Part shown: positions 8,041 to 23,151 of the stretch, one piece after another
How positions within the stretch are numbered: position 1 is the stretch's first letter
Layout: every line of letters starts with the position of its first letter
Assembly (NCBI GenBank): GCA_934190785.1
Contig: CAKPTA010000001.1
Span: 111,540 to 175,539 of the forward strand
DNA from: an uncultured Bacilli bacterium
GTDB lineage: Bacteria > Bacillota_I > Bacilli_A > RF39 > UBA660
Direction: 5' to 3'
Length of the DNA: 64,000 nucleotides
The notes under the pieces: model-generated
Seen by the model: only the letters and a program-made list of their open reading frames with translations
What the model was told of the DNA's origin: nothing
The model's database searches: none
Program-made: the position numbers and the translations under genes

Positions 8041-8162
8041 AAAATCACCATTAACATTATAACAAAATTAGTATAAAAAGCAATATTGAAGTCATAATGG
8101 TTATTTCCTTGACTATATAAAATCTATGTGATAAAATAAACAATCAAAAAAGGGGTGGCAGT

Positions 8163-10905: not shown

Positions 10906-12699
10906 ATGGATTATATAAAACAAAAACTTTCTTTGGTTCCTAATTTGCCGGGTTGTTATCTAATGAAGAATAAAGATGGGGTTATTATTTATGTTGGTAA
11001 AGCTAAAAAATTAAAAAACCGTGTTAGCTCTTATTTTAGAGGTACACATACAGGTAAAACAGCTAAACTTGTAAGTGAAATTGTTGACTTTGAATATGTT
11101 GTTGTTGGAAGTGAAACAGAGTCTCTGATTTTAGAGATGAATTTAATAAAAGAGCATGATCCTAAATATAATATTTTACTTAGAGATGATAAAAGCTATC
11201 CTTATATTGAACTTACAAACGATAAAGTTCCAAAACTTAGTGTTGTTAGAAGTCTAAATAAGAAAAAACACAAAGGTAACTTATATGGACCATATCCAAA
11301 TGTTGGAGCTGCAAGAAATACAGTTAATTTATTAAATCGTATGTATCCTCTTAGAAAATGTAATACATATAATAGTCGTCCTTGCCTTTATTATCACATA
11401 CATGAATGTCTTGGGTATTGTACTCATAAAGTAGATCAAAGTGTGGTCGCAAAGATGAGAGATGAAATAATTAAGTTTTTAAAAGGAGACCATACTTATG
11501 TAACAGAGCGTATTACAAAAGAAATGAATGATGCTGCTTTAAGTCTTAATTTTGAAAAAGCACAAGAATTAAAAGAACTGCTTGATTATATTAAAGTAAC
11601 ATTAGTTAAACAAAAAGTAGAAGTTCAAGATAACGTTGATAGAGATGTTTTTGGATATTATATATATAAAGGTTATATATCAATTCAAGTTTTCTTTATT
11701 CGCGGTGGTAAAGTATTAGAAAGGCATTCTAAGATAGCTACTATGATGGAAGACGAAGGAGAAGAACTTACAAATTATATTGCTAAGTTTTATTCTGGTA
11801 GCTTTTTACTTCCTAAAGAAGTTCTTGTACCAGAAATTGTTGATTATAATACTTTGTCAGAATTCCTATCTGTATCTGTAAAAGCCCCACAAAAAGGTGT
11901 TAAGAAAAAATTAGTTGATATGGCAAAAGAAAATGCCAAAATATCACTTTTAAATCAATTTGAAATGATTGAAAAAGATCAGACTAAAACATCTAGCGCT
12001 AATGAAGAATTAAGAAATATTCTTAAACTTGATAGTTTATATCGTATTGAACTTTTTGATAATTCTCATCTTTTTGGAACATATAGTGTTTCTGGAATGG
12101 TTGTTTTTAAGGATGGTAAACCAAGTAAAAATGATTATCGTAAATTTAAAATCATGGAAGATTCAAACGATGAATATGGAATGATGAAGGAAGTTATTTA
12201 TAGAAGGTATTTTCGCATTTTAAGAGATAACTTAGAAAAACCAGATTTAATTATTGTTGATGGTGGATTAGGACAAATTCATGTGGCAAGAGAAATCCTT
12301 AAAAGTTTAGGTATGAATATACCAGTAGTTGGATTAAAGAAGGATAATAAGCATAATACTAGTGCTCTTTTAGCTTTTGATCCTATTGTTGAAATTCCAA
12401 TTGATAAAAAAAGTAATTTATTTTATTTCTTAGAAAGAATGCAAGATGAAGTACACGATTTTACAATTGCATATCATAGACAAATTAGAAGTAAGGGTGC
12501 AGTTGAAAGCATTCTAGACAATGTAGCTGGAATTGGTAGTGTTAGAAAAAAACAATTGTTAAAAAAATATAAAACTATTACTAAAATCAAAGAAGCTGGT
12601 GTAGAAGAAATAGGAAAAATTGTTCCATCTTCTGTTGCACTTGAACTTATGAATGTAATTGATGAATACCTTAAAAATAATAAGGAACTTAAAAGTTAA
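10906..12699 (+). CDS. uvrC: excinuclease ABC subunit C
   Basis: N-terminal GIY-YIG (PGCYLMKNKDGVIIYVGKAKKLKNRVSSYF), 597 aa. Confidence 0.9.
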   Translation: MDYIKQKLSLVPNLPGCYLMKNKDGVIIYVGKAKKLKNRVSSYFRGTHTGKTAKLVSEIVDFEYVVVGSETESLILEMNLIKEHDPKYNILLRDDKSYPYIELTNDKVPKLSVVRSLNKKKHKGNLYGPYPNVGAARNTVNLLNRMYPLRKCNTYNSRPCLYYHIHECLGYCTHKVDQSVVAKMRDEIIKFLKGDHTYVTERITKEMNDAALSLNFEKAQELKELLDYIKVTLVKQKVEVQDNVDRDVFGYYIYKGYISIQVFFIRGGKVLERHSKIATMMEDEGEELTNYIAKFYSGSFLLPKEVLVPEIVDYNTLSEFLSVSVKAPQKGVKKKLVDMAKENAKISLLNQFEMIEKDQTKTSSANEELRNILKLDSLYRIELFDNSHLFGTYSVSGMVVFKDGKPSKNDYRKFKIMEDSNDEYGMMKEVIYRRYFRILRDNLEKPDLIIVDGGLGQIHVAREILKSLGMNIPVVGLKKDNKHNTSALLAFDPIVEIPIDKKSNLFYFLERMQDEVHDFTIAYHRQIRSKGAVESILDNVAGIGSVRKKQLLKKYKTITKIKEAGVEEIGKIVPSSVALELMNVIDEYLKNNKELKS

Positions 12700-12754
12700 A
12701 TAAAAGTAAAAAATACATTGCTTTTTAATAAAATATAGTGTATATTATTTATGT

Positions 12755-12801
12755 ACTTATTCGTGGAGATTCGATCCTCCGACGATTTCTAGGAATAAGC
12801 G
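12755..12801 (+). promoter_or_regulatory. putative rpsO leader stem-loop (possible S15 autoregulatory element)
   Basis: acttattc...gaataag 8-bp outer stem encloses ggag/ctcc inner helices, 24 nt upstream of the rpsO ATG. Confidence 0.3.
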
Positions 12802-12824
12802 AATTTTAGAAAAGGAGAAAAATT

Positions 12825-13094
12825 ATGGCATTAACAAGCGAAAAGAAACAAGAAATTATAAAGAAATATGCAAGAACTGAAGGAGATACAGGATCTGCTG
12901 AAGTACAAATTGCTATTTTAACTGCTGAGATTAACGAATTAACTGAGCATTTAAAGGAACATAAACATGACTATCATTCAAGAAGAGGTCTTTTAAAGAA
13001 AGTTGGTCAAAGACGTAGTTTACAAAGATATTTACTTAAGACTGACGTTACTCGTTATAGAAACTTGATAGCTAGTTTAGGACTTAGAAAATAA
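12825..13094 (+). CDS. rpsO: 30S ribosomal protein S15
   Basis: 89 aa, ...[29 protein letters not shown]..., with a strong RBS. Confidence 0.95.
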
Positions 13095-13098
13095 TAAA

Positions 13099-13135
13099 GT
13101 AGGCACTTATTTTAAGTGTCTTTATTTTTATTTAT
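13099..13135 (+). terminator. rho-independent terminator after rpsO
   Basis: aggcacttattttaagtgtct hairpin followed by a T-run. Confidence 0.55.
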
Positions 13136-13230
13136 AAATAAAAAAATAATAATTTTTTATAACTTTAATTCTAAAATATTAAAGTGTTAGTTTTAAGAAT
13201 ATAAAGTTATTTGAAAGGAAATAATAAGAT

Positions 13231-13860
13231 ATGGATAGTAAAAGAGTTTTTATTGGAGTATACAAAGATACTAATCAAGAATCATTGTTTTACCAAAAAG
13301 ATAATGGCTTATTTCGTGATTTGATAAAAAGTAGATCTGTTTCTATTGATGAATTAGAAAGTAATTTAATTTCTTATGATAGTTTTTGTGATAATATTAT
13401 AGAACACAGCAGTAAGGCAATTTCTTATGATAGTTTTTATGCTAACATTATAGAACACAAAAGTAAATTTAAAAGAAATATGATTAAGCTATATAATTAT
13501 GATAGAATGCAGAAAGTATCGTTAAAAAGAGTGTTTATAGGGAATAGTTATGTAGTTGCTAAAATACTTAATAGAGATTTTTTTGGTTTTTCATCATGTA
13601 CAACAACTTATAGCAGTCAAAAATTAGGTGATAGAATATTATTATATTCTGAAGATTATGATCTAGAATATAGTGATTTTATTGATATAGAGAATAATGA
13701 ATATTATAAGAATTTATTTTGTCCAGAAAAAGGAGATATTTATATTTCGATAGATGATTTAAAACCGGCTTCATTAGAACTTAATATTCATGATACGGTT
13801 GTTGAAAAACAAAAGTTGTTAGAAAAATATAGAACGTATAAAAAAGGAGGTAACAAATGA
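13231..13860 (+). CDS. hypothetical protein inserted between rpsO and pnp; contains an internal tandem repeat
   Basis: 209 aa. The repeat unit ISYDSF(C/Y)(D/A)NIIEH(S/K)SK occurs twice. A second module (KRVFIG...) is also duplicated. Overlaps the pnp start by 4 nt. Confidence 0.4.
13369..13470 (+). repeat. direct tandem repeat, 2 x 51 bp (~85% identical), in-frame within the CDS
   Basis: Copy 1 at 13369-13419 and copy 2 at 13420-13470, read directly. Confidence 0.7.
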
Positions 13861-15995
13861 AAAGAGTATTTGAATTAGATTTTAGAGGAAGAAAAATTGT
13901 TGTAGAACATGGAGAACTTGCTAAACAAGCAGATGGAGCTGTTTTAGTTCGTTATGGTGATACAGTTATTTTAACTGCAGCTGTTGTTGCTAAAACTGCT
14001 AATTTATTATCTGATTTTTTTCCATTAACAGTTTTATATCAAGAAAAACTTTATTCTGTTGGTAAAATACCAGGTGGTTTTATAAAAAGAGAAGGACGTC
14101 CTACTGAAAATGCTACATTAGCAGCTAGAATGATTGATCGTCCTATGCGACCACTATTTAAGGATGGATTTAAAAATGAAGTACAAATAGTTAATACAGT
14201 TTTATCAGTAGATCAGGATAATTCACCAGAAATGACAGCAATGTTAGGTTCAAGCTTAGCAGTATCAATTAGTAAAATTCCATTTGATGGGCCTATTGCT
14301 GGTGTAAAAGTGGGAAGAGTTAATGGCGAATTTATTATAAATCCAACAAAAGAACAAATGGATAACTCTGATATTGATTTAACGGTAGCAGGAACTAAAG
14401 ACGCTATTAATATGGTAGAGGCAGGTGCAAAAGAAGTAAGTGAAGACGATATGCTTGAAGCTTTAATGTTTGGACATGAAGCTATTAAGGAACTTATTGC
14501 TTTTGAAGAAGAAATAATATCAGCAATTGGTGAAGAAGATATGGAATATGAAACACTAGAGATTACTGATGATTTCAAAAAAGAAATCGAAGTTCTTGCT
14601 GGTCCTACTTTAAATACAGCTATGCGTATTAAAGATAAGTTAGAAAAATATGCTGCTATTGATGCAGCAAAAGAAGATGTTGTTAAAATTTATGAAGAGA
14701 AGGGCGCATCTTTAAGTGAAGATGAGAAAAAAGAATTAATTACTAAGGTAAAATTAGTACTTGAAAATATTGAGTATGAAATATTTAGAAATATAGTTGT
14801 AAAAGAACATACAAGAGCTGATGGAAGAGAAATGGATGAAATTAGACCACTATCAACTGATATTGATCTATTACCTCGAACTCATGGTTCTGCTTTATTT
14901 ACAAGAGGACAAACTCAAGCTTTAGGTGTTGTTACGCTTGGAGCTTTAGGGGAACATCAAATTTTAGATGGACTTTCTATTGAAGACGAGAAAAGATTTA
15001 TGTTACATTACAATTTCCCTCAATTTTCAGTTGGAGAAACAGGACGTTATGGTGCACCTGGAAGAAGAGAAATTGGACACGGTGCTTTAGGAGAACGTGC
15101 ATTGCAACAGGTAATACCAAGTGAGGATGAATTCCCATATACAATTCGTGTTGTTTCCGAAATACTTGAATCCAATGGTTCATCAAGCCAAGCATCTATT
15201 TGTGCTGGTTGTATGGCTTTAATGGCAGCAGGTGTGCCAATAAAAGCTCCAGTAGCAGGTATTGCTATGGGATTAATTACACATGAATCTGATTATACAA
15301 TTTTAACTGATATTCAAGGTATGGAAGATCATCTTGGTGATATGGATTTCAAAGTAGCAGGAACTAGAGATGGAATTTGTGCTCTTCAGATGGATATTAA
15401 AATTAAAGGTATTACAAAACAAATACTAAAAGAAGCTTTAGATAAGGCCAAAAAAGCACGTATGCAAGTTTTAGATGTTATGGAAAAACAAATTGCTGCA
15501 CCTAGAAGCGAAGTTAGTAAATATGCTCCTAAGACAATGTCATTCTATATTAATCCAAATCGTATTAAAGAAGTAATTGGAAAAGGTGGAGAAATGATTA
15601 CTAAGATAATTCTAGAATCAAGCCACGTAAATACAGTAACTGATGTTAATGCTGTAAAAGTTGATATAGAAGAAGATGGTAGAGTAATAATTTATCATAG
15701 TGATAAAGATATTATTGATGAGACAGCACGTCGTATCAAAGATGTTGTAAGAGAAGTAGAAGATGGTGCTATTTACAAAGGAAAAGTAGTAAAAGTTGAA
15801 GATTTTGGATGTTTTGTTGAATTGTGGCCTGGATGTGAAGGACTTGTTCATGTTTCACATTTAGATAGTAAGCGTGTTGAAAAACCTAGTGATGTTGTAT
15901 CTGTTGGTGATGAAATCATTGTAAAAAGTTTAGGTTATGACAAACGTGGAAGACTTAATTTATCAAGAAAAGAAGCTTTGCAAGAAGAAAAATAA
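13857..15995 (+). CDS. pnp: polynucleotide phosphorylase
   Basis: 712 aa with two RNase PH domains, KH and S1. The [15 protein letters not shown] motif is present. Confidence 0.95.
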
Positions 15996-16557: not shown

Positions 16558-19182
16558 ATGATTCAAGATTTTAAAAATAAAACAAAAGAAGAACGCCTTA
16601 TGCTATTATCAAACAGTGAATTTATAAAAAGTATTTTAGCGATGCCACCAGCTTCTCTTAATGCTTTTGGACTTTCCCTTAGTAATGATGAAATGCAAAA
16701 GTTTGTTCCATATGCATCTGATTTTACAAAAGTAGATAGAATTCGTTTTAATGCTTTTTTTAAAACATTTGGTTCAAATATTCAGAAACAATTTTTTGAT
16801 AATGAAGAATTTTTAACGTTTTACATGGAAGCAAAAAAAACACAGCGAGGATATCATCCTTTTATGTCACTTCCTGAGGATGTAAAATTATACGTTTTAG
16901 AGAAACATGAATATATTATGAGTCATATAAATAATCTTGAATATATACATAATTTAAATAAAGAAAATGAAAGATTATATCTTGATTCACTTGATACATA
17001 TATAAAAAATAATTGTAGTGATGAGCTTAAAAACATTCCTATCACTGAGCTTAGATATGTATATAGCTTGTACCATGATAAAGATTATTCTAAAGTTAAA
17101 GCTTGGTGTAAACGGGAATTTCAAATTGAAGATGAAGAATTATTTGAAAGCTTATTTAATTTAATTATTCATAATCATGCTAAACTTACTTATGCCCTAA
17201 CACTAAAAACAGAGTTAGAATGGTTATTATATTTAAAATTTGATATTTATATACCATCATTAGATGAAAAAAGTGAAAATCTAGGTATTAAACTGGATAA
17301 AGAATTATTAAAAAAAGTTAGAGTACATGATGTTAACCGTATATATAGAGAATTAGCTAATACTAATGAATTAAATGATTATGAAAAGCTTATTTTATCA
17401 CTTAATGCGTATAGTGTTTTGGGGCTTGATAATAGTTTAAAACTAGTCCGTGGTAAGTTTTCAAATATAACAGATCGTGCTCTTGATAGATCAGCAAGAT
17501 TAGATTTTACTGATAGTAGAAGAGAATATAGAATAAAACATCAAGATGAGTTTTACGGTTATCAATTATTTGATAAAGTAAAAAGGTGTTTTAAAGATGA
17601 AGAATATACATATCTAGAAAATATTTTTAAAATAAATCATAATGAAATAGATGAGTATATAAATGAAATATATTCCATGTGGAAGAAGAATGAAAAACAT
17701 GAAGAGTGGGATACCTTTTTAGCCCATATAATAAAAACAACAATTACTAGACGTGAGAAAAATTTAGAAAAAGAACACATTGAAAAATTTAAGAAAAATT
17801 ATCTAGCAAAAAGAACACATGATGTAACAATTAAAGATGTATTTATGTGTTTTCGTGATATTGATTTAAGTAATATTTCTTACAATGATAAGGGTAAACC
17901 TATAATTAATCCAGTTTTAGTTACATTTTTACTGGGAAATGAAAAAGTTGATAATGATTGTTTAATTAGACTTGTTTTAAATGGACTAGCTTTTGGACTT
18001 AATTATACGCTTGCAAATACAATTAATCATTTTAAAGCTTTAAATGATATAATTGAAAAATCTAAAGGTAAAATGAATATTAATTCTCTTTTAGATGTAA
18101 TTGATGCTAGTAAAGTATTACTTTATGAATTAGAGCCTGATGAGCAAGATATTTCTCTTGCTACAATAGCTAAAATTCAGTCTTCAAGGCAGCATTGCAA
18201 TGAACCTGTTGATGTAATTATAAGAAAAGTAAAAAAGCTTCATCATGAGAGAAAAAGTAAAGTAGCAGCTACAATTCCATTTGTTCGTGGAATAAGTGCT
18301 AATGGTATTTCTTATGGTATATTAGAGTATGATGATGAAAAAGTACTTACGGCTGGAATAGATACTGGAAGTTGTTTTAGAGTAGGCGCTAGAGGTGAAG
18401 ATTTTCTACGCTATTGTGCATTAGATAAAAATGGCGCTATATTATCCCTTACAACTAAAGAAGGTAATTATTACATTTGTCCACTTATTAGAAATGGGAA
18501 CAGTGTTTATGGAAATGGCATAGATCCAGAACCAAAAACAGAAAAAGAGACAGAGGAACTATTAACAACAATTAAAGAATGTTTCTCTAAAATGTGCCTT
18601 CGAAGTGATAAAAAAGAACCAATTGAAATAGGTGTTATCACTGATTTACATAATAAAAATTATTTTGAACATGAAACTTATGAAAAATTTAATTCTAAGG
18701 AAGCTTTTATGCTAGGAGAATACTGTTATACTGATTACTATAAATCAACAATTCAAAATTATATAATTTATAAAGAAAATAATGCTGAAACTAAATATTA
18801 CAATCCTAACATTGTTTATAGTGAGCCACGCCAAAAACCATATACATATATTTCATCAGTAGAGCAAGATAAAGAACGAATTAACCTTTTAATAAATTCA
18901 ATTGGTTACACAATATATAAAGAGGAATTAATTAAAGAAAAAAGTAGAAAAAAAGCTTTTAAAACATATAAACCATTTAATGTTGATGATTTTAAATCAA
19001 TTAATGGTGCTAAAGATTGGTTTGTAGGAATAAAAGACAACTTAACAGTTGAAAGTAGATGCTTACCATATGATAAAAGAGCAAAAATTGAAATGTATAA
19101 CGCTTTAGCTAAAATAGAAGAACAACTAAATTTTTCAGAAACTATGGAGGAAAATCTATCATGCGAGAAGAAAAAGGTATAA
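16558..19182 (+). CDS. large hypothetical protein (874 aa)
   Basis: Long uninterrupted ORF with TTGACA-17-TATATT promoter upstream. No recognised domain. Confidence 0.4.
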   Translation: MIQDFKNKTKEERLMLLSNSEFIKSILAMPPASLNAFGLSLSNDEMQKFVPYASDFTKVDRIRFNAFFKTFGSNIQKQFFDNEEFLTFYMEAKKTQRGYHPFMSLPEDVKLYVLEKHEYIMSHINNLEYIHNLNKENERLYLDSLDTYIKNNCSDELKNIPITELRYVYSLYHDKDYSKVKAWCKREFQIEDEELFESLFNLIIHNHAKLTYALTLKTELEWLLYLKFDIYIPSLDEKSENLGIKLDKELLKKVRVHDVNRIYRELANTNELNDYEKLILSLNAYSVLGLDNSLKLVRGKFSNITDRALDRSARLDFTDSRREYRIKHQDEFYGYQLFDKVKRCFKDEEYTYLENIFKINHNEIDEYINEIYSMWKKNEKHEEWDTFLAHIIKTTITRREKNLEKEHIEKFKKNYLAKRTHDVTIKDVFMCFRDIDLSNISYNDKGKPIINPVLVTFLLGNEKVDNDCLIRLVLNGLAFGLNYTLANTINHFKALNDIIEKSKGKMNINSLLDVIDASKVLLYELEPDEQDISLATIAKIQSSRQHCNEPVDVIIRKVKKLHHERKSKVAATIPFVRGISANGISYGILEYDDEKVLTAGIDTGSCFRVGARGEDFLRYCALDKNGAILSLTTKEGNYYICPLIRNGNSVYGNGIDPEPKTEKETEELLTTIKECFSKMCLRSDKKEPIEIGVITDLHNKNYFEHETYEKFNSKEAFMLGEYCYTDYYKSTIQNYIIYKENNAETKYYNPNIVYSEPRQKPYTYISSVEQDKERINLLINSIGYTIYKEELIKEKSRKKAFKTYKPFNVDDFKSINGAKDWFVGIKDNLTVESRCLPYDKRAKIEMYNALAKIEEQLNFSETMEENLSCEKKKV

Positions 19183-19373
19183 TAAAAGAATATATAGATG
19201 ATATTAATGGAATAATACTAGGTGAAGATAATATTGAATACTTTTTTTCAAAAGTAAATATGGACTCGGATATAACAGGTAGTGTTAATGAAAAAGTAAG
19301 ATTTATTGTAAAAAATATAAAAACAGAAAATGGATATATTATCCATAAAGCTATCGATATTACAGGGTTATAG
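19161..19373 (+). CDS. small protein with cold-shock-domain-like pattern
   Basis: 70 aa. KGIIKEY..NGIILGEDN.IEYFF...GSVNEKVRFIV...GYIIHKAIDI resembles the CspA layout. Overlaps the upstream gene by 22 nt. Confidence 0.3.
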   Translation: MREEKGIIKEYIDDINGIILGEDNIEYFFSKVNMDSDITGSVNEKVRFIVKNIKTENGYIIHKAIDITGL

Positions 19374-19423
19374 TTTTATTATATAAGAATTCTAAGTACA
19401 CCCACGCTCCACTTGACAAGTGG

Positions 19424-19454
19424 GGGGGGGGTGTATGCTAAAATACACTTTAGA
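19424..19454 (+). promoter_or_regulatory. putative sigma-A promoter (TTGACA ... TAAAAT) with a 19-nt spacer containing a G9 homopolymer
   Basis: -35 TTGACA at 19424-19429 lies inside the perfect palindrome ccacttg-a-caagtgg. -10 TAAAAT at 19449-19454. G run at 19433-19441. Confidence 0.4.
19433..19441. repeat. poly-G homopolymeric tract (9 G)
   Basis: Read directly. This is the only such G/C run in the window. Confidence 0.9.
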
Positions 19455-19472
19455 ATAGAGGTGTATTTTTTT

Positions 19473-21065
19473 ATGAAAAAGAAAGGTTTTACTTTAATAG
19501 AATTACTTGCCGTAATAGTTATTTTAGCTGTTGTTGCACTAATATCAATGCCACTAGTATTAAATACAATAGATAAGGCAAAGAAAGGTGCAGCTATAGA
19601 ATCAGCTAATGGTGTTATATCAGCAGCTGAGAATAAATACATGAGTAGTATGATAACAGGAGATAAAGATACAAGATTTGATTTTCCAAGTGATACCAAG
19701 TTATCAATCAAAGGAACAAGACCAACAAGTGGAACAGTTGTCGTTGATAAGAAAGGTAATATAAGTGCTACTTTAGAAATAAATGGATACTGCATAGAAA
19801 AGACGTTTCTTGAAACATCACCAAAAGTAATAGAAAAAAGTCCATGTACAATTAGTGATAGTGAGCTTTTTGAAGCAGAAAAATATAAAGATTCTGTTTT
19901 AAATGGAGCAGACCCTGTTATAAATAGTGACTTAGTAGCAGTAACAATAGAAAATGATGGAACAGTAAAAAAAGCCGATATCAAAAAAGAATGGTATAAC
20001 TATAAAAATAAAGTATGGGCCAATGCGATTATTCTAAAAGATAAAACAATAAACTATGAAGATAATGAGGTAATACCAGAAAGTAATATAGAATCATATT
20101 TTGTATGGATACCAAGATATAAATATAGAATCTTTAATGAAGGAAATTATACAAACTATATAGAAGGAAAACCAGAAAGTTCAAGCAAACCAGATACAAT
20201 AGAAATAGTATTTGAAAATAAAGATACAAGTGTATCAAATGGTTCAAAGGTAGGAGAATACTTAACACATCCAGCCTTTACAAGTTTTGAAAGTAATGGA
20301 TTTTGGATGGGAAAATTTGAAACAACTGGAAGTACAAGTAATATAACAGTAAAACCAAATAATACATCACTTCGAAATATAAATGTAAAATCAATGTTTG
20401 AGTTAGCTTACAATTATAATAGAAATCTAGATAGTCATATGCTAAAGAATACTGAGTGGGGAGCAGCTACATACTTATCATATTCAGTATATGGAATAAA
20501 TGATGAAGTAAATATAAATAATAATAGTAACTTTGTAACAGGATATAGTGCGGTTTCTGGAACAGATCAAAGTAGTTATCCTGGAACATATGGAACTGAT
20601 ACAAGTGTAACACTTGCATATAATACAGAAACAGGGTATAAGGCAAGTACAACTGGAAATATAAGTGGAGTATATGATATGAGTGGAGGAGCATGGGAAT
20701 ACATGGCTTCATATATGAAAGATACATATAAAGATAGCGGTTTTGATGCAGCCTCAATATCTTCATATAATTCAAAATACTTTGATATTTATCCAAGTGA
20801 TAGTGGTTGGACAAGTTATAATAAACGAATTTTAGGAGATGCGACAGGAGAGATAGGGCCATTCTATTATTACAAAGATAAAGATGGAAATAACAGAATA
20901 CATAACTCTTGGTTTGGGGACTACTCTTATTTCGTTGACGCTTCTTACCCTTGGTTCGTACGCGGAGGCCGTTACGCCAACGGTGTTCTTGCAGGTCAGT
21001 CGTTTTTTGATAGGTCTACTGGTGTTGCGAGCAGTTGGAATGGCTTCCGCCTTGCATTAATATAA
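19473..21065 (+). CDS. type IV prepilin-like N-terminus fused to a formylglycine-generating-enzyme (FGE/SUMF1) family domain
   Basis: MKKKG|FTLIELLAVIVILAVVALI is the prepilin cleavage/methylation motif (Gly-1, Phe+1, Glu+5). The C-terminal domain carries FGE hallmarks (...TEWGAATY..., GGAWEYM, RGGRYANG...SWNGFRLAL). I prefer ATG 19473 to the upstream track start, which reads through the G tract. Confidence 0.6.
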   Translation: MKKKGFTLIELLAVIVILAVVALISMPLVLNTIDKAKKGAAIESANGVISAAENKYMSSMITGDKDTRFDFPSDTKLSIKGTRPTSGTVVVDKKGNISATLEINGYCIEKTFLETSPKVIEKSPCTISDSELFEAEKYKDSVLNGADPVINSDLVAVTIENDGTVKKADIKKEWYNYKNKVWANAIILKDKTINYEDNEVIPESNIESYFVWIPRYKYRIFNEGNYTNYIEGKPESSSKPDTIEIVFENKDTSVSNGSKVGEYLTHPAFTSFESNGFWMGKFETTGSTSNITVKPNNTSLRNINVKSMFELAYNYNRNLDSHMLKNTEWGAATYLSYSVYGINDEVNINNNSNFVTGYSAVSGTDQSSYPGTYGTDTSVTLAYNTETGYKASTTGNISGVYDMSGGAWEYMASYMKDTYKDSGFDAASISSYNSKYFDIYPSDSGWTSYNKRILGDATGEIGPFYYYKDKDGNNRIHNSWFGDYSYFVDASYPWFVRGGRYANGVLAGQSFFDRSTGVASSWNGFRLALI

Positions 21066-21080
21066 AAATAATTATTTTTA

Positions 21081-21101
21081 AAGACAATTTTGTCTTTTTT
21101 T
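21081..21101 (+). terminator. rho-independent terminator after the pilin-FGE gene
   Basis: aagacaa-tt-ttgtctt followed by T7. Confidence 0.5.
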
Positions 21102-21125
21102 GTTATACTATTAGCAGTGATATTT

Positions 21126-22079
21126 ATGAATGAATTAGAATTAATAAATGATGTTGTTAGCAAGTATATATCCGATTGTAATATAGAAGATATGAACGAT
21201 TTTAGATTTTTAACGTCTTTAATTGATATTTTTGATAGTAATTATAAGGGAAATAAAGTTAGAGATTTTAAGAAACGTGTTTCTTTGAAACGTTGTCTTA
21301 AATATGCATATGATTTTTTTATGTCTATTAATTCAGACTATGCGGCTTACTTAGAAAAACGTTTAGATGAAGGTGCTTTTATCTTTGAAACTGGTAAAGA
21401 AAAGTATGACAATAATTTATCTATTTCTAGTATTATTGATGGTAAAGCAAAGATGATAGTATATCTTCAAAATACTATTAATGATGCTTATGCAATTACG
21501 CATGAGCTTATTCATGATATGACTATAGAAAGAGAAGGAGTAGATAATTCTGCTACAAGATCTGTATTTTGTGAAATGTTTTCCTTATTGGGAGAAGAAC
21601 TTTTAAGAGATTATTTTGAAAGGACTACTAGGCCAAGTGAGTATGAACTTGAGAGTAAATATAATTTATATGTAATCTCTTGGAAAAATAAAATTATTTT
21701 ATATGAGCTTCATTTAATTGAAACTTATCTTAATAATGGGTATATTCATGCTACTGATTTAGCTTATGGTGATGATGATCTTGTATGCGGTATTGCACTT
21801 GATGATATTTTAGATAATAAGGATTTAAGTTTTCCTTTTGAAGAAAGGTATGTAATAGGTTATTTATTTGCGTGTTATATGCTTGATAGAGTTGATAGTA
21901 ATAGTAAAAATATTAATGAATTTTTTGAACTTAATGATATTATTAATAAATTTAAATTTTTAAATTTGACAAATTATTTAGAACTTGATGTAGTGGATGC
22001 TAGAACATTTGATTTAACAGATGAATCTTATAAAAAGATAGAAAATGCTTTTGTTAAAAGGTTAAAGAAAGTTAGGTAA
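21126..22079 (+). CDS. HExxH...E putative gluzincin metallopeptidase, paralog 1
   Basis: HELIH, then a Glu about 20 aa downstream (FCEMFS). I prefer ATG 21126 because the track TTG start lies inside the terminator. Confidence 0.45.
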   Translation: MNELELINDVVSKYISDCNIEDMNDFRFLTSLIDIFDSNYKGNKVRDFKKRVSLKRCLKYAYDFFMSINSDYAAYLEKRLDEGAFIFETGKEKYDNNLSISSIIDGKAKMIVYLQNTINDAYAITHELIHDMTIEREGVDNSATRSVFCEMFSLLGEELLRDYFERTTRPSEYELESKYNLYVISWKNKIILYELHLIETYLNNGYIHATDLAYGDDDLVCGIALDDILDNKDLSFPFEERYVIGYLFACYMLDRVDSNSKNINEFFELNDIINKFKFLNLTNYLELDVVDARTFDLTDESYKKIENAFVKRLKKVR

Positions 22080-22107
22080 ATGATTGTAAAATAAAGTGGG
22101 GGTAATA

Positions 22108-23151
22108 ATGGTGACAGTAGAAGAGTATAAAAAATTAAATGATTATTTAAATGGCTGTTTTATTAAATTAGAAAGAAATGACTGGTTTTTATTAGATAAT
22201 ATAAGTTTTTTTGATAAACTTAGTAAAGCTTTTATTGAAACTGTTAATGAATATGATTTAGGCATGAATACTGAAGCTTGTAATATTAGTTTTAATGATA
22301 TTTACGTTTTAGCTCGTGAAATTCTTGAAGATATTTCACCATCATATTTGCCTATATTTGATACTTTAATAAAAAGCGGCGAGCTTGATTTTAGTTATGA
22401 GAATGAATATAAAACTTCTTGTGTTACATATGATCATTTAAATGATGTTTCTCTAATTAATATTAATTTAAGTTTTACACATCAAGATGTTGCTACTTTA
22501 ATTCATGAGTTTATGCATAAAATTAATTATGGCAATTCTTTTAATTGGTATATATTTACAGAATTTATCTCTATTTATTTTGAGGAATATGCGAAACGAT
22601 ATTTACTTAATAAAGGCATTTTTAAAGATAGTTTGAATTTAAATCTTAGAATATCTAATACATTAATATGTGCAAGTGATATTGTTAGTTATTCTCGTAT
22701 TATTTTTGCATATGAAAAAATGGGTAAAATTGATATGAATTCATATGAATTTTTAGATGAATATTTTACTCCTACAGATAAAGATGATTTTGAAGATGAA
22801 TGTAAAGTATTTTTACAAAAAATTCAAAAAATTGAGAATAGTTATAAAATGTCTATTTTGTATGAAAAAGATTTTAATGAAAATGAATTATATGATAAAA
22901 TTATTAGAAGTTTATCTAAGGGGTATCGTTATATTTTAGGAACTGCCGTAGCTTATTATGCATTAGAACATTGTAATAAAGAAGATATTGTATATTTATC
23001 TTGGCATATTAATGATGAAGAGTTTAGAAATATTTCTTTTTTTGAATGTTTAAATAAAATTGGAATAAGTAGTGATATTATAACGATTAATGATTGTACT
23101 GATGCGGTAAAAAAGGTACTTGAAAATAATTCACATAAAAAAGATAGGTGA
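22108..23151 (+). CDS. HExxH...E putative gluzincin metallopeptidase, paralog 2
   Basis: HEFMH ... FTEFIS. Same size and layout as paralog 1. Ends 5 nt before miaA. Confidence 0.45.
   Translation: MVTVEEYKKLNDYLNGCFIKLERNDWFLLDNISFFDKLSKAFIETVNEYDLGMNTEACNISFNDIYVLAREILEDISPSYLPIFDTLIKSGELDFSYENEYKTSCVTYDHLNDVSLININLSFTHQDVATLIHEFMHKINYGNSFNWYIFTEFISIYFEEYAKRYLLNKGIFKDSLNLNLRISNTLICASDIVSYSRIIFAYEKMGKIDMNSYEFLDEYFTPTDKDDFEDECKVFLQKIQKIENSYKMSILYEKDFNENELYDKIIRSLSKGYRYILGTAVAYYALEHCNKEDIVYLSWHINDEEFRNISFFECLNKIGISSDIITINDCTDAVKKVLENNSHKKDR

Follow-up and report, generated by a model that had tools for sequence, protein, structure and literature searches.

The gene at positions 19473 to 21065 of the window (the whole 64-kb stretch of DNA that we analysed) encodes a type-IV-pilin-like protein, and the promoter region in front of it is built around a run of ten G's. 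The features of the locus are these:

19376 to 19396, + strand: left edge of a shared promoter/gene cassette, placed by alignment of copy L042
19396 to 19436, + strand: hairpin 1, a long imperfect inverted repeat holding the -35 hexamer and the G tract, from repeat search and folding
19413 to 19418, + strand: -35 hexamer TTGACA, read from the letters
19422 to 19431, + strand: poly-G tract, G10, the putative hypermutable element
19434 to 19444, + strand: extended -10, TATG-c-TAAAAT, likewise read from the letters, comprising the -16 'TRTG' motif and the hexamer at 19439-19444
19440 to 19469, + strand: hairpin 2 of the MFE fold, with 5' arm AAAATACACTTT (19440-19451, overlapping the -10), loop (19452-19457) and 3' arm GAGGTGTATTTT (19458-19469, covering the Shine-Dalgarno sequence)
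19451 to 19453, + strand: predicted transcription start, 7-9 nt past the -10 and located from the position of the latter
19457 to 19463, + strand: Shine-Dalgarno sequence AGAGGTG, with the ATG 9 nt further on
19466 to 19472, + strand: T7 run between the Shine-Dalgarno sequence and the ATG; T6, T7 or T8 in other lineages and paralogues
19473 to 21065, + strand: gene for the 530-aa type-IV-pilin-like protein (MKKKG followed by FTLIELL...), with a C-terminal CLec/FGE-like domain, from Pfam and PDB matches
20906 to 21055, + strand: 3' end of the gene resembling a DGR variable region, 84% identical to the template repeat beside the orthologue in L070

The protein begins with a prepilin motif in which the basic short leader MKKKG is followed, after a G/F cleavage site, by FTLIELLAVIVILAVVALI, with Glu5 and a hydrophobic N-terminal helix, as expected of a pilin. 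The Pfam N_methyl family (PF07963) matches above its cut-off at E 1.8e-7. At the other end of the protein, FGE-sulfatase (PF03781) scores 20.1 bits (E 5.6e-4), below its curated cut-off of 23.3, and the match to PDB entry 5vf4 is weak (E 4e-4). Of the pilin-FGE fusion proposed in an earlier note on this DNA, the prepilin-type N-terminus is borne out, while the FGE-sulfatase/CLec match is weak. More than 7,500 homologues of the protein were found at E<=1e-20. An exact look-up of the window protein returned zero matches, and orthologous loci were reached via the neighbouring 70-aa ORF.

In one of these loci, L070, the orthologous gene is followed by a MutS_I-bAvd-RT (RVT_1) series, and the template repeat (TR) and variable region (VR) differ at 15 positions, 14 of which are TR adenines. 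Measured against this foreign TR, the VR of the window gene shows 24 differences, 13 of them at TR adenines. A nucleotide search of the 64-kb window with the L070 TR returned the VR itself only, and a protein search for paralogues within the window returned only the gene itself, neither search bringing up an RT or Avd gene; the window gene would be a DGR target acted on in trans. The protein joins a prepilin methylation motif to a DGR-type variable region, the combination looked for in a surface or contingency function. Judged from these motifs, it is a typical contingency-type surface protein, pilin-like and presumably diversified by a DGR.

The promoter itself was described in the earlier note as a G9 run at 19433-19441 between TTGACA at 19424-19429 and TAAAAT at 19449-19454. 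A single long G run is indeed present between these two hexamers, but it is a G10 at 19422-19431, and the hexamers lie at 19413-19418 and 19439-19444, the inner coordinates having been about 11 nt off. The spacer, agt-G10-tgtatgc, measures 20 nt rather than the 19 nt given previously, so that three G's, not two, would have to be lost to reach 17 nt. As that note had observed, the tract has no counterpart in the window: it is the sole run of G or C of 6 or longer, the next longest being 5, and the number of G>=10 runs expected there by chance is about 0.0012. In other words, a homopolymer of at least about 7 nt lies inside a recognisable -35/-10 spacer, as in the promoters of porA and tp0126.

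The TATG upstream of the -10 hexamer is one that we take to be the Gram-positive -16 motif. For comparison, a canonical promoter elsewhere in the window reads TTGACT-17-TGTGaTAAAAT; it is the one clear 17-nt example in an otherwise sparse estimate of typical spacer length in the window. Our promoter scan admitted spacers of 16-18 nt only and was blind to the G-tract promoter. Rfam, run over the whole window, reported three tRNAs and an L21 leader, all of them elsewhere, and zero matches at the G-tract locus. Two alternative reading frames were considered. A TTG start at 19413 would give a 550-aa ORF with the G tract in frame, and was rejected because it has no Shine-Dalgarno sequence, because a pilin leader must be short, and because G9 and G11 alleles break the frame. 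An antisense ORF at 19379-19984 was dismissed as spurious.

As described previously, the -35 hexamer lies within a perfect palindrome, CCACTTG-A-CAAGTGG (19409-19423), nested in the longer imperfect repeat that forms hairpin 1, with outer arms TACACCC (19397-19403) and GGGTGTA (19429-19435). Overall, the arms of hairpin 1 are 19 nt long and 84% complementary. The count of 7-1-7 palindromes in the window is statistically unremarkable (18, versus 13.5 +/- 2.5 in shuffles), this one being the only G+C-rich example among them. Hairpin 1 alone folds as DNA at -14.6 kcal/mol (z -4.9), and hairpins 1 and 2 jointly reach -36.5 kcal/mol (z -6.6) in RNA and DNA folds. Hairpin 1 may serve as insulation from upstream transcription, or as a protein-binding site.

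The 5' arm of hairpin 2 ends at the predicted transcription start. Since that arm lies upstream of the start, hairpin 2 should form only in read-through transcripts, where it would bury the ribosome-binding site, and it probably silences them, as far as the fold can be trusted. Pairing between the -10 box and the Shine-Dalgarno sequence, with other arm sequences, also appears in the homologous promoters of L010, L012 (twice), L013 and L020, with z scores from -3.8 to -5.8. Covariation in hairpin 2 is weak, with three pairs changed on both sides in an automatic alignment of five sequences analysed with RNAalifold. Hairpin 2 (19440-19469) and the extended -10 TATGcTAAAAT are both absent from the earlier note.

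The promoter is not confined to this gene. A conserved module of about 100 bp, consisting of the -35 TTGACA, the G tract, the extended -10 TATGcTAAAAT, the Shine-Dalgarno sequence and the ATG, precedes every member of a multicopy pilin-like family with a C-terminal DGR variable region, comprising at least 8 paralogous genes or loci. These Bacilli turned up in assemblies of Hadza samples, of a human gut metagenome and of numerous further samples. One copy, L042, lies in another genomic context, downstream of suf genes, and aligns with the window only from 19376 rightwards. Among paralogous copies, conservation starts about 35-40 nt upstream of the -35; the outer TACACC of hairpin 1 is kept and the 5-6 nt inside it are variable. 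The sole variable base in the extended -10 block is the 'n' of TRTGn (C, T or A), a pattern that fits an extended -10 motif. In L059, the same module drives an unrelated membrane protein.

Tract length varies both at fixed loci and across the family. In short-read assemblies, we found 27 reliable copies, of which 5 have G9, 20 have G10 and 2 have G11; all have spacers of 19-21 nt, and none has 17 or 18 nt. The module carries G9, G10 or G11 at no fewer than 8 loci. The clearest evidence for change comes from pairs of assemblies that are otherwise the same. Over 10,521 nt, for example, the only difference between L072 and L078 is G9 versus G10, with 0 mismatches. Between L072 and L073 the G tract is the only indel in 20.2 kb of alignment, and between the window and L064 the only indel in 6.1 kb is G10 versus G11. 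L060 (G9) and L110 (G10) form a further same-locus pair. The shared 10.5 kb contains 19 long homopolymers, two of which vary: the G tract and the lineage-specific T run at 19466-19472. At the level of consensus assemblies, then, the tract is hypervariable relative to its flanking DNA, and comparing related genomes, which the earlier note had put forward as a test of its own claim, gives a length that is not invariant. Tract length does not track relatedness, which points to recurrent change.

Homopolymer length is subject to sequencing error, and an error of +/-1 at G10 is possible in low-coverage short-read assemblies, since there is no comparable G or C run to act as an error control. The contigs of VOFC01 carry G7, G8, G9 and G11, and so seemed to include the predicted ON lengths. 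We discarded them because A/T-homopolymer indels number about 45 per 9.6 kb in this error-prone long-read assembly, coding DNA included.

As a further check, we examined homologues outside the species. Homologues from other Bacilli and from a Nomurabacteria MAG have a run of G6-G11 at the equivalent promoter position: in 9 of 9 cases a TTGAC-type -35 precedes it and a TATAAT-type -10 follows, with a family member a short way downstream, and the spacers that include it measure 14-20 nt, on either side of 17. The earlier proposal that the palindrome is an operator has conservation among paralogues as its one argument; in other species the palindrome is not conserved, unlike the cTTGAC core before the G tract, which is kept. 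In Saccharibacteria homologues, a tract of G6, G8 or G9 is placed in the 5' coding region. Five widely distributed tract-less homologues (P0089, P0076, P0061, P0082 and P0038), which are negative controls and not replicates of hypermutability, have a 17-nt spacer or an extended -10 only, and show zero promoter indels among 4-10 samples each. A search of viral contigs for the promoter pattern gave 0 matches. Two hits from the metagenome scan, L052 and L061, were set aside as G+C-rich chance matches.

We give a probability of roughly 70% to the reading that the G10 is a homopolymer prone to slippage that sits in a sigma-A-type promoter spacer and controls expression of a DGR-diversified pilin-like family. 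Its assignment to the hypermutable promoter-spacer tracts of the porA and T. pallidum tp0126 type is well supported by these comparisons. The candidate phase-variation switch put forward in the earlier note is partly supported: the idea of a slippage-prone tract in a surface-gene promoter is backed by the G9-G11 variation, its standing as the sole indel and the G6-G11 runs of other species; the geometry given there is wrong. We infer that slipped-strand mispairing in replication gains or loses G's, altering the distance and helical phase between the -35 and the -10. Transcription of each copy would then shift stochastically and heritably, as phase or 'volume' variation. Under the canonical 17-nt optimum, full activity would be expected at G7-G8, and the prevailing G9-G11 (19-21 nt) would be low or OFF states relying on the extended -10 alone. 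The ON length predicted by this geometry, G7-G8, occurs in 0 reliable assemblies, and for an extended -10 promoter the placement of the -35 may matter fairly little. The two hairpins would confine expression to the gene's own promoter, hairpin 1 extending over the -35 and the G tract and hairpin 2 acting in read-through transcripts.

A different account would have the G run held at about 10 as a fixed structural element, either because it makes up the 3' arm of hairpin 1 (which would terminate or insulate the operon upstream, or be a cruciform or a protein-binding palindrome) or because an activator bound at the palindrome or at TACACC needs exactly this spacing; regulation would be conventional, and G9 and G11 would be noise of sequencing or assembly, or neutral polymorphism. 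The prevalence of G10 (20 of the 27 reliable copies, spread over at least 8 loci) is a narrow spread for a freely drifting tract, hairpin 1 is strong with conserved outer arms, and in other species (L008 and L020) a canonical terminator lies directly upstream of the -35, which suggests that an insulating element at that place is the rule. Yet several comparisons of 6-20 kb show no indel other than the tract, whose changes recur regardless of relatedness. The 5'-arm bases facing the G run vary freely among paralogues and pair poorly, which argues that there is no selection for hairpin 1 pairing with the run, and other species have tracts of 6 to 11 G's without a matching C-rich arm. Nor do the two hairpins look like terminators: hairpin 1 has no U tail, hairpin 2 is A/U-rich though T7 follows, and a scan of 18800-21300 for rho-independent terminators found none. 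We consider a fixed element unlikely.

Two other explanations take the tract as something other than a tuning device. If the palindrome and G tract were a site or microhomology for cassette exchange, the locus would be a recombination junction that places different genes behind a fixed left flank. The gene's right-hand context does vary among samples, with 10 kb of left flank constant, and DNA of L075/L032 is identical to that of the window up to G8, beyond which lies a DNA-methylase/HTH region unrelated to it; a comparable junction, TTGAC-N2-G8-aga...aaagccttataatacaa, is present in L013, another species. Most breakpoints, however, lie away from the tract, either where the cassette begins on its left (19376) or where the gene's VR ends (21052-21078), and there they are the expected product of homologous recombination between paralogues that share promoter and VR. 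A single junction within the tract was observed, no recombinase gene is adjacent, and the position of the tract in promoter spacers across species would be left unexplained, which together make this explanation very unlikely. The spacers of 19-21 nt in all 27 reliable copies might instead be the working geometry of an activator-dependent promoter. A MerR-like regulator would then bring the -35 and -10 into register by untwisting or bending the DNA, with the G tract as a stiff spacer and G10 as a competent rather than an OFF state. MerR-family promoters have characteristic 19-20-bp spacers, and there are dyad symmetries around the promoter. Although the 20 nt fits, the centres of these dyads fall on the -35 (19416) and the -10 (GTGTAT-N6-ATACAC), whereas in MerR operators the dyad is inside the spacer; homologous promoters of other species carry the same tract with spacers of 14-18 nt, and we saw no MerR-type gene beside any copy. 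We rate this the least probable of the alternatives.

The slippage-prone promoter tract that we favour has precedents in N. meningitidis porA and T. pallidum tp0126, tprE/G/J and tprL, where a G run (about 7-12 there) likewise lies inside the sigma-70-type promoter of a surface-protein gene and its length polymorphism changes the -35/-10 spacing. For the poly-G promoter of tp0126, the optimum spacer is 17 nt, and in tprL, G8 is active, G10 is about at background and most cells have G9 (PMC7864442). Most copies of the window family are likewise above the predicted optimum length. Unlike porA and tp0126, the host here belongs to an uncultured gut lineage of Bacilli with very AT-rich DNA and an extended -10 of the Gram-positive type, the near-identical module is portable and present at 8 loci or more with the tract embedded in a hairpin, and the gene is pilin-like and an apparent DGR target whose switching is a prediction from sequence.

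In Mycoplasma hyorhinis, the vlp genes form a multigene family of surface lipoproteins with a poly-A tract in the promoter spacer. The resemblance extends to a multicopy family in a small AT-rich Bacilli-related genome, a spacer homopolymer belonging to each copy, combinatorial ON/OFF states and most copies at non-permissive lengths, so far as these can be predicted here. The vlp products are lipoproteins with repetitive C-termini, associated with poly-A and with no retroelement, in contrast to the poly-G and pilin-like CLec proteins of the present family. Hairpin 2 has its closest parallel in the 'fold-back inhibition' of externally initiated transposase transcripts in IS10/Tn10, reportedly described by Davis, Simons and Kleckner in 1985. 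As in IS10, the predicted structure should form only in transcripts begun upstream of the gene's own promoter and sequester the ribosome-binding site, so read-through transcripts would be untranslatable. Unlike the IS10 transposase, the gene here is a chromosomal surface-protein gene and its hairpin 2 is a prediction.

The downstream protein resembles DGR proteins such as Bordetella phage Mtd, Treponema denticola TvpA, archaeal AvpA and CPR targets in its C-terminal VR, in differences at TR adenines (14 of 15 in the L070 orthologue) and in the bAvd and RT genes adjacent in L070, and its weak FGE-sulfatase and 5vf4 matches recall DGR proteins of the C-type-lectin/FGE-sulfatase fold. It differs from the named proteins in having a type-IV-pilin class III signal/methylation motif at its N-terminus, in that one DGR apparently serves many dispersed paralogues, and in the poly-G promoter tract of family members. 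A literature search brought up no study that connects DGR targets to phase variation by homopolymers, and the full text of a Bacteroides DGR preprint has no phase variation, invertible or homopolymer terms.

A wider scheme, which we offer tentatively and hold to be somewhat less probable than not, is a two-layer diversification of a pilus-tip-like adhesin family in uncultured gut Bacilli and CPR. Each of the many dispersed copies would have its own insulated slippage promoter (with poly-G in the spacer, except in Saccharibacteria, where it is part of the 5' coding sequence), so that cells would express stochastic subsets of the copies. One DGR would rewrite all the ligand-binding tips in trans, and the shared promoter and VR ends would serve as handles for recombination, reshuffling the chromosome. 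Given its use for an unrelated membrane protein in L059, the module would amount to a portable 'phase-variable expression cassette'. For metagenomics, such loci break assemblies, and tract lengths from long-read assemblies are unreliable. The promoter module is compact and easily testable. If the switch works, little-known uncultured gut Bacilli share the contingency-locus logic of Neisseria, Treponema and Mycoplasma. Stochastic ON/OFF control and retroelement-driven hypermutation would then be joined on one surface protein family, a combination that would make these proteins strong candidates for the interface with a host, phage or partner cell.

The only long G or C homopolymer in the window lies between the -35 and -10 hexamers of the pilin-like gene (19473..21065, plus strand). 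The earlier note had described it as a G9 run at 19433-19441, with TTGACA at 19424-19429, TAAAAT at 19449-19454, and a 19-nt spacer that the loss of two G would bring to 17 nt. The feature is real, but these coordinates and counts are wrong: the run is G10, the spacer is 20 nt, and a 17-nt spacer needs G7. The elements are placed as follows.

Elements of the pilin-like gene promoter (window coordinates, plus strand)
19397-19403, outer arm TACACCC
19409-19423, perfect palindrome CCACTTG-A-CAAGTGG
19413-19418, -35 hexamer TTGACA
19422-19431, G run of ten bases
19429-19435, outer arm GGGTGTA
19439-19444, -10 hexamer TAAAAT
19457-19463, Shine-Dalgarno (SD) sequence AGAGGTG; gene ATG at 19473

That the tract is the single G/C homopolymer in 64 kb was borne out: there is no other G or C run of six or more (the longest is five), and base composition predicts about 0.0012 runs of ten or more G in the window. 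The sequence also agrees that the -35 sits within a perfect palindrome nested in a longer TACACCC...GGGTGTA repeat. A 7-1-7 palindrome as such is not unusual (18 in the window versus 13.5 +/- 2.5 in shuffles); CCACTTG-A-CAAGTGG is the only G+C-rich one of the 18. Overlooked until now was TATGc directly before TAAAAT, which makes this an extended -10, an element that in its Gram-positive form reads TRTGn-TAnnnT. Elsewhere in the window, a canonical promoter at 8109, TTGACT-17-TGTGaTAAAAT, has a 17-nt spacer. The motif GGTGTA/TACACC occurs four times within 19397-19465 (at 19397, inverted; 19430; 19444, inverted; and 19460), and a perfect dyad, GTGTAT-N6-ATACAC (19431-19448), is centered on the -10. 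These copies and the dyad could form a regulator binding site, instead of or besides an RNA structure.

The promoter is part of a module of approximately 100 bp, TACACC-N5-6-CCACTTGACAAGT-Gn-TGTATGnTAAAAT-ACACTTTAGAATAGAGGTGTAT(6-8)-ATG, that precedes pilin-like genes and is present in at least eight genomic contexts of this species. Copies were recovered by an exact-pattern scan of metagenome contigs and by look-ups of neighboring proteins; public contigs and loci compared with the window carry L numbers. Between TATG and TAAAAT, the copies vary only at the 'n' of TRTGn (C, T, or A), which is what the extended -10 assignment predicts. In a single case, on contig L059 (7349-8366), the module extends through TAAAAT with a G11 tract and is followed by another 5' UTR and a gene for a 277-aa membrane-anchored protein. 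Because it stands there before a different gene, the promoter is modular.

Contigs of the VOFC01 assembly series (L053, L054, L058, L063, L066, and L067) have tracts of G7 to G11. We discarded these lengths because, relative to the window, the series has about 45 A/T-homopolymer indels per 9.6 kb, some of them shifting the frame of coding sequences. As an error-prone long-read assembly, it is no guide to homopolymer length. At the window's own locus, 14 short-read samples have G9 in 2, G10 in 11, and G11 in 1, so that the tract is not invariant across related genomes, a check that the earlier note had proposed. Over all paralogous short-read copies, the tally is G9 in 5, G10 in 20, and G11 in 2. 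Over 10,521 nt, the only difference between contigs L072 and L078 is G9 versus G10. The tract is the sole indel between L072 and L073 (20.2 kb aligned, 39 substitutions) and, as G10 versus G11, between the window and L064 (6.1 kb at 99.5% identity); L060 (G9) and L110 (G10) are another same-locus pair. Length is independent of relatedness, in that L079 (G9) is nearest to L071 (G10) just as L072 is to L078, and the change is therefore recurrent. Only 2 of the 19 long homopolymers in the shared 10.5 kb differ, the G tract and a lineage-specific T7/T8 before the ATG. The variation is modest and is seen in consensus assemblies only.

In nine of nine cases from other species, a family member has a G6-G11 tract a short distance upstream (L001, L005, L008, L010, L012 twice, L013, L020, and the Nomurabacteria locus L024). 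In eight of these it separates a cTTGAC-type -35 from a TATAAT-type -10, while L005 is without a clear -35. The -35/-10 distances, read by eye, are 14, 15, 16, 17, 17, 18, 19, and 20 nt, and so fall both above and below the optimum. As a control, we considered five tract-less homologues: the spacer is exactly 17 nt in four, the fifth has only an extended -10, and none shows a promoter indel in its 4-10 independent samples. The best case for a selected contingency element, as opposed to an accident, is this family-wide association together with the tract-less contrast. In Saccharibacteria homologues, the tract is part of the 5' coding region, directly ahead of the signal-peptide core (G6 at L025 1985, G9 at L026 1982, G8 at L029 1878, and C8 at L027 2055), and G6 and G9 keep the reading frame. 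Such a tract would act by frameshifting, pointing to phase variation at the level of translation within the same family.

Slipped-strand mispairing in the promoter-spacer homopolymer is the best-supported reading, with a probability of roughly 0.7. Slippage would shift both the spacing and the phase of the -35 and -10. With n G residues the spacer is 3 + n + 7 nt; G7 gives 17 nt, and the observed G9-G11 give 19-21 nt. From these spacers we infer that the prevailing alleles are low or OFF, dependent on the extended -10 alone; the ON states would then be rare alleles with shorter tracts. The phase switch proposed in the earlier note is plausible, with support from the comparisons; the reliable copies, however, include nothing shorter than G9 and so lack the predicted ON length. 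The mechanism is the one described for Neisseria meningitidis porA and Treponema pallidum tp0126, tprE/G/J, and tprL; in tprL, activity is seen with G8 and is close to background with G10, and most cells have G9 (PMC7864442). The window tract appears to be of the porA/tp0126 kind in anatomy, consensus-level hypervariability, and gene type, and at the family level the system resembles the vlp genes of Mycoplasma hyorhinis. The narrow peak at G10 across at least eight loci could reflect gene conversion between near-identical modules, selection favoring the OFF state, or a geometry that departs from the canonical one and depends on an activator. It is not a MerR-type promoter, as the dyads are misplaced for one.

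Considered as RNA, 19385-19480 folds into two hairpins (-36.5 kcal/mol, z -6.6). Hairpin 1 (19396-19436) holds the -35 and the tract. Among paralogues its outer arms are conserved, while the bases facing the G run vary and pair poorly; therefore, the tract is not kept for base pairing. Other species have a canonical terminator at this position, immediately 5' of the -35 (L008 and L020), which suggests an insulating role for hairpin 1. A terminator scan did not support either hairpin as a canonical terminator, and no Rfam family was found at the promoter locus.

Hairpin 2 (19440-19469), also overlooked earlier, pairs the -10 box with the Shine-Dalgarno sequence through the arms AAAATACACTTT (19440-19451) and GAGGTGTATTTT (19458-19469). 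Its 5' arm ends at the start predicted from TAAAAT, about 19451-19453, so it should be formable only in transcripts from upstream. In such read-through transcripts it would bury the ribosome-binding site, making expression strictly dependent on the tract-controlled promoter. The predicted hairpin resembles the fold-back inhibition that shields IS10 transposase from outside transcription. The same design is predicted with other arm sequences in L010, L012 (twice), L013, and L020 (z -3.8 to -5.8; arm cores ATAAC/GTTAT, AATCA/TGATT, and ATACAC/GTGTAT), and a formal alignment test on five sequences was weak. The T run between SD and ATG (19466-19472) is T7 in the window, T6 in L108 and L109, and T8 in promoter lineage B (L060, L071-L073, L078, and L079); both the SD-ATG distance and the hairpin 2 stem change with its length.

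The gene product starts MKKKG|FTLIELL..., a prepilin-type N-terminus (Pfam N_methyl, E 1.8e-7). Its family is very large (more than 7,500 proteins at E<=1e-20), with hosts among uncultured 'Bacilli' MAGs of human, rabbit, and mouse gut and more distant members in Saccharibacteria and Nomurabacteria; several copies per genome are common. The ortholog on contig L070, 98.9% identical, is followed by components of a diversity-generating retroelement (DGR).

Features of contig L070
11746-11913, variable region (VR)
12072-12239, template repeat (TR)
12431-14167, MutS_I, bAvd, and reverse transcriptase genes

The 3' end of the L070 gene differs from the TR at 15 positions, 14 of them TR adenines, a bias that is the signature of a DGR. 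In the window gene, the 3' end (20906-21055) is VR-like, 84% identical to the L070 TR with the same codons varying; the TR matched nowhere else in the 64-kb window, in which no reverse transcriptase gene was identified. The C-terminal half of the protein weakly matches PDB 5vf4, an archaeal DGR variable protein. The supposed pilin-FGE fusion therefore appears to be a pilin-like DGR target protein; its FGE-sulfatase match is weak and under the curated Pfam cut-off. Many dispersed paralogues are probably served in trans by one DGR.

The samples agree in the 10 kb left of the module and differ in the sequence right of the gene, which is the miaA side in the window, the DGR in L070, other genes in L074, and a DNA-methylase/HTH region without the pilin gene in L075. 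Breakpoints fall at the left edge of the module (19376, versus L042), at the VR end of the gene (21052-21078, versus L070 and L074), and once inside the tract (19429, versus L075). Recombination between paralogues via the shared promoter and VR would yield those at 19376 and 21052-21078, and their position at the cassette edges points to such recombination or to assembly misjoins. Metagenome assemblies break systematically at the pilin-like gene, which is multicopy and hypervariable: in independent assemblies, many contigs (L036-L041, L043-L051, and L055-L069) stop 30-190 codons into it or start in its last 50-300 codons. L075 (9013-9240, the same as L032 3262-3480) is identical to the window through G8 and then continues as unrelated agattgaagg...aaagccttataatacaa, beyond which lie a split cytosine DNA methylase, two minus-strand ORFs, and HTH genes. 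A different species has a similar junction, TTGAC-N2-G8-aga...aaagccttataatacaa (L013 4920-4996).

Directly 3' of the gene are two adjacent paralogous ORFs (21090-22079 and 22096-23151; 329 and 351 aa) that have HExxH-like motifs (THELIHD and IHEFMHK), no Pfam match, and travel with the gene in some strains. On the 5' side of the cassette, 16558-19373 holds an 874-aa ORF and an overlapping 70-aa ORF, neither of which matches Pfam; the 70-aa sequence recurs without change in 188 blocks of the public assembly collection. Within ORF 13231-13860, a tandem 51-nt repeat (13360-13461; two copies, 84% identical) is found, and the two strain lineages are set apart by small indels and substitutions clustered at about 13412-13437.

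In our literature search, no paper connected DGR targets with homopolymer phase variation. The combination of an insulated, portable, phase-variable promoter with DGR diversification of a multicopy pilin-like family, in Bacilli and CPR, is possibly new.
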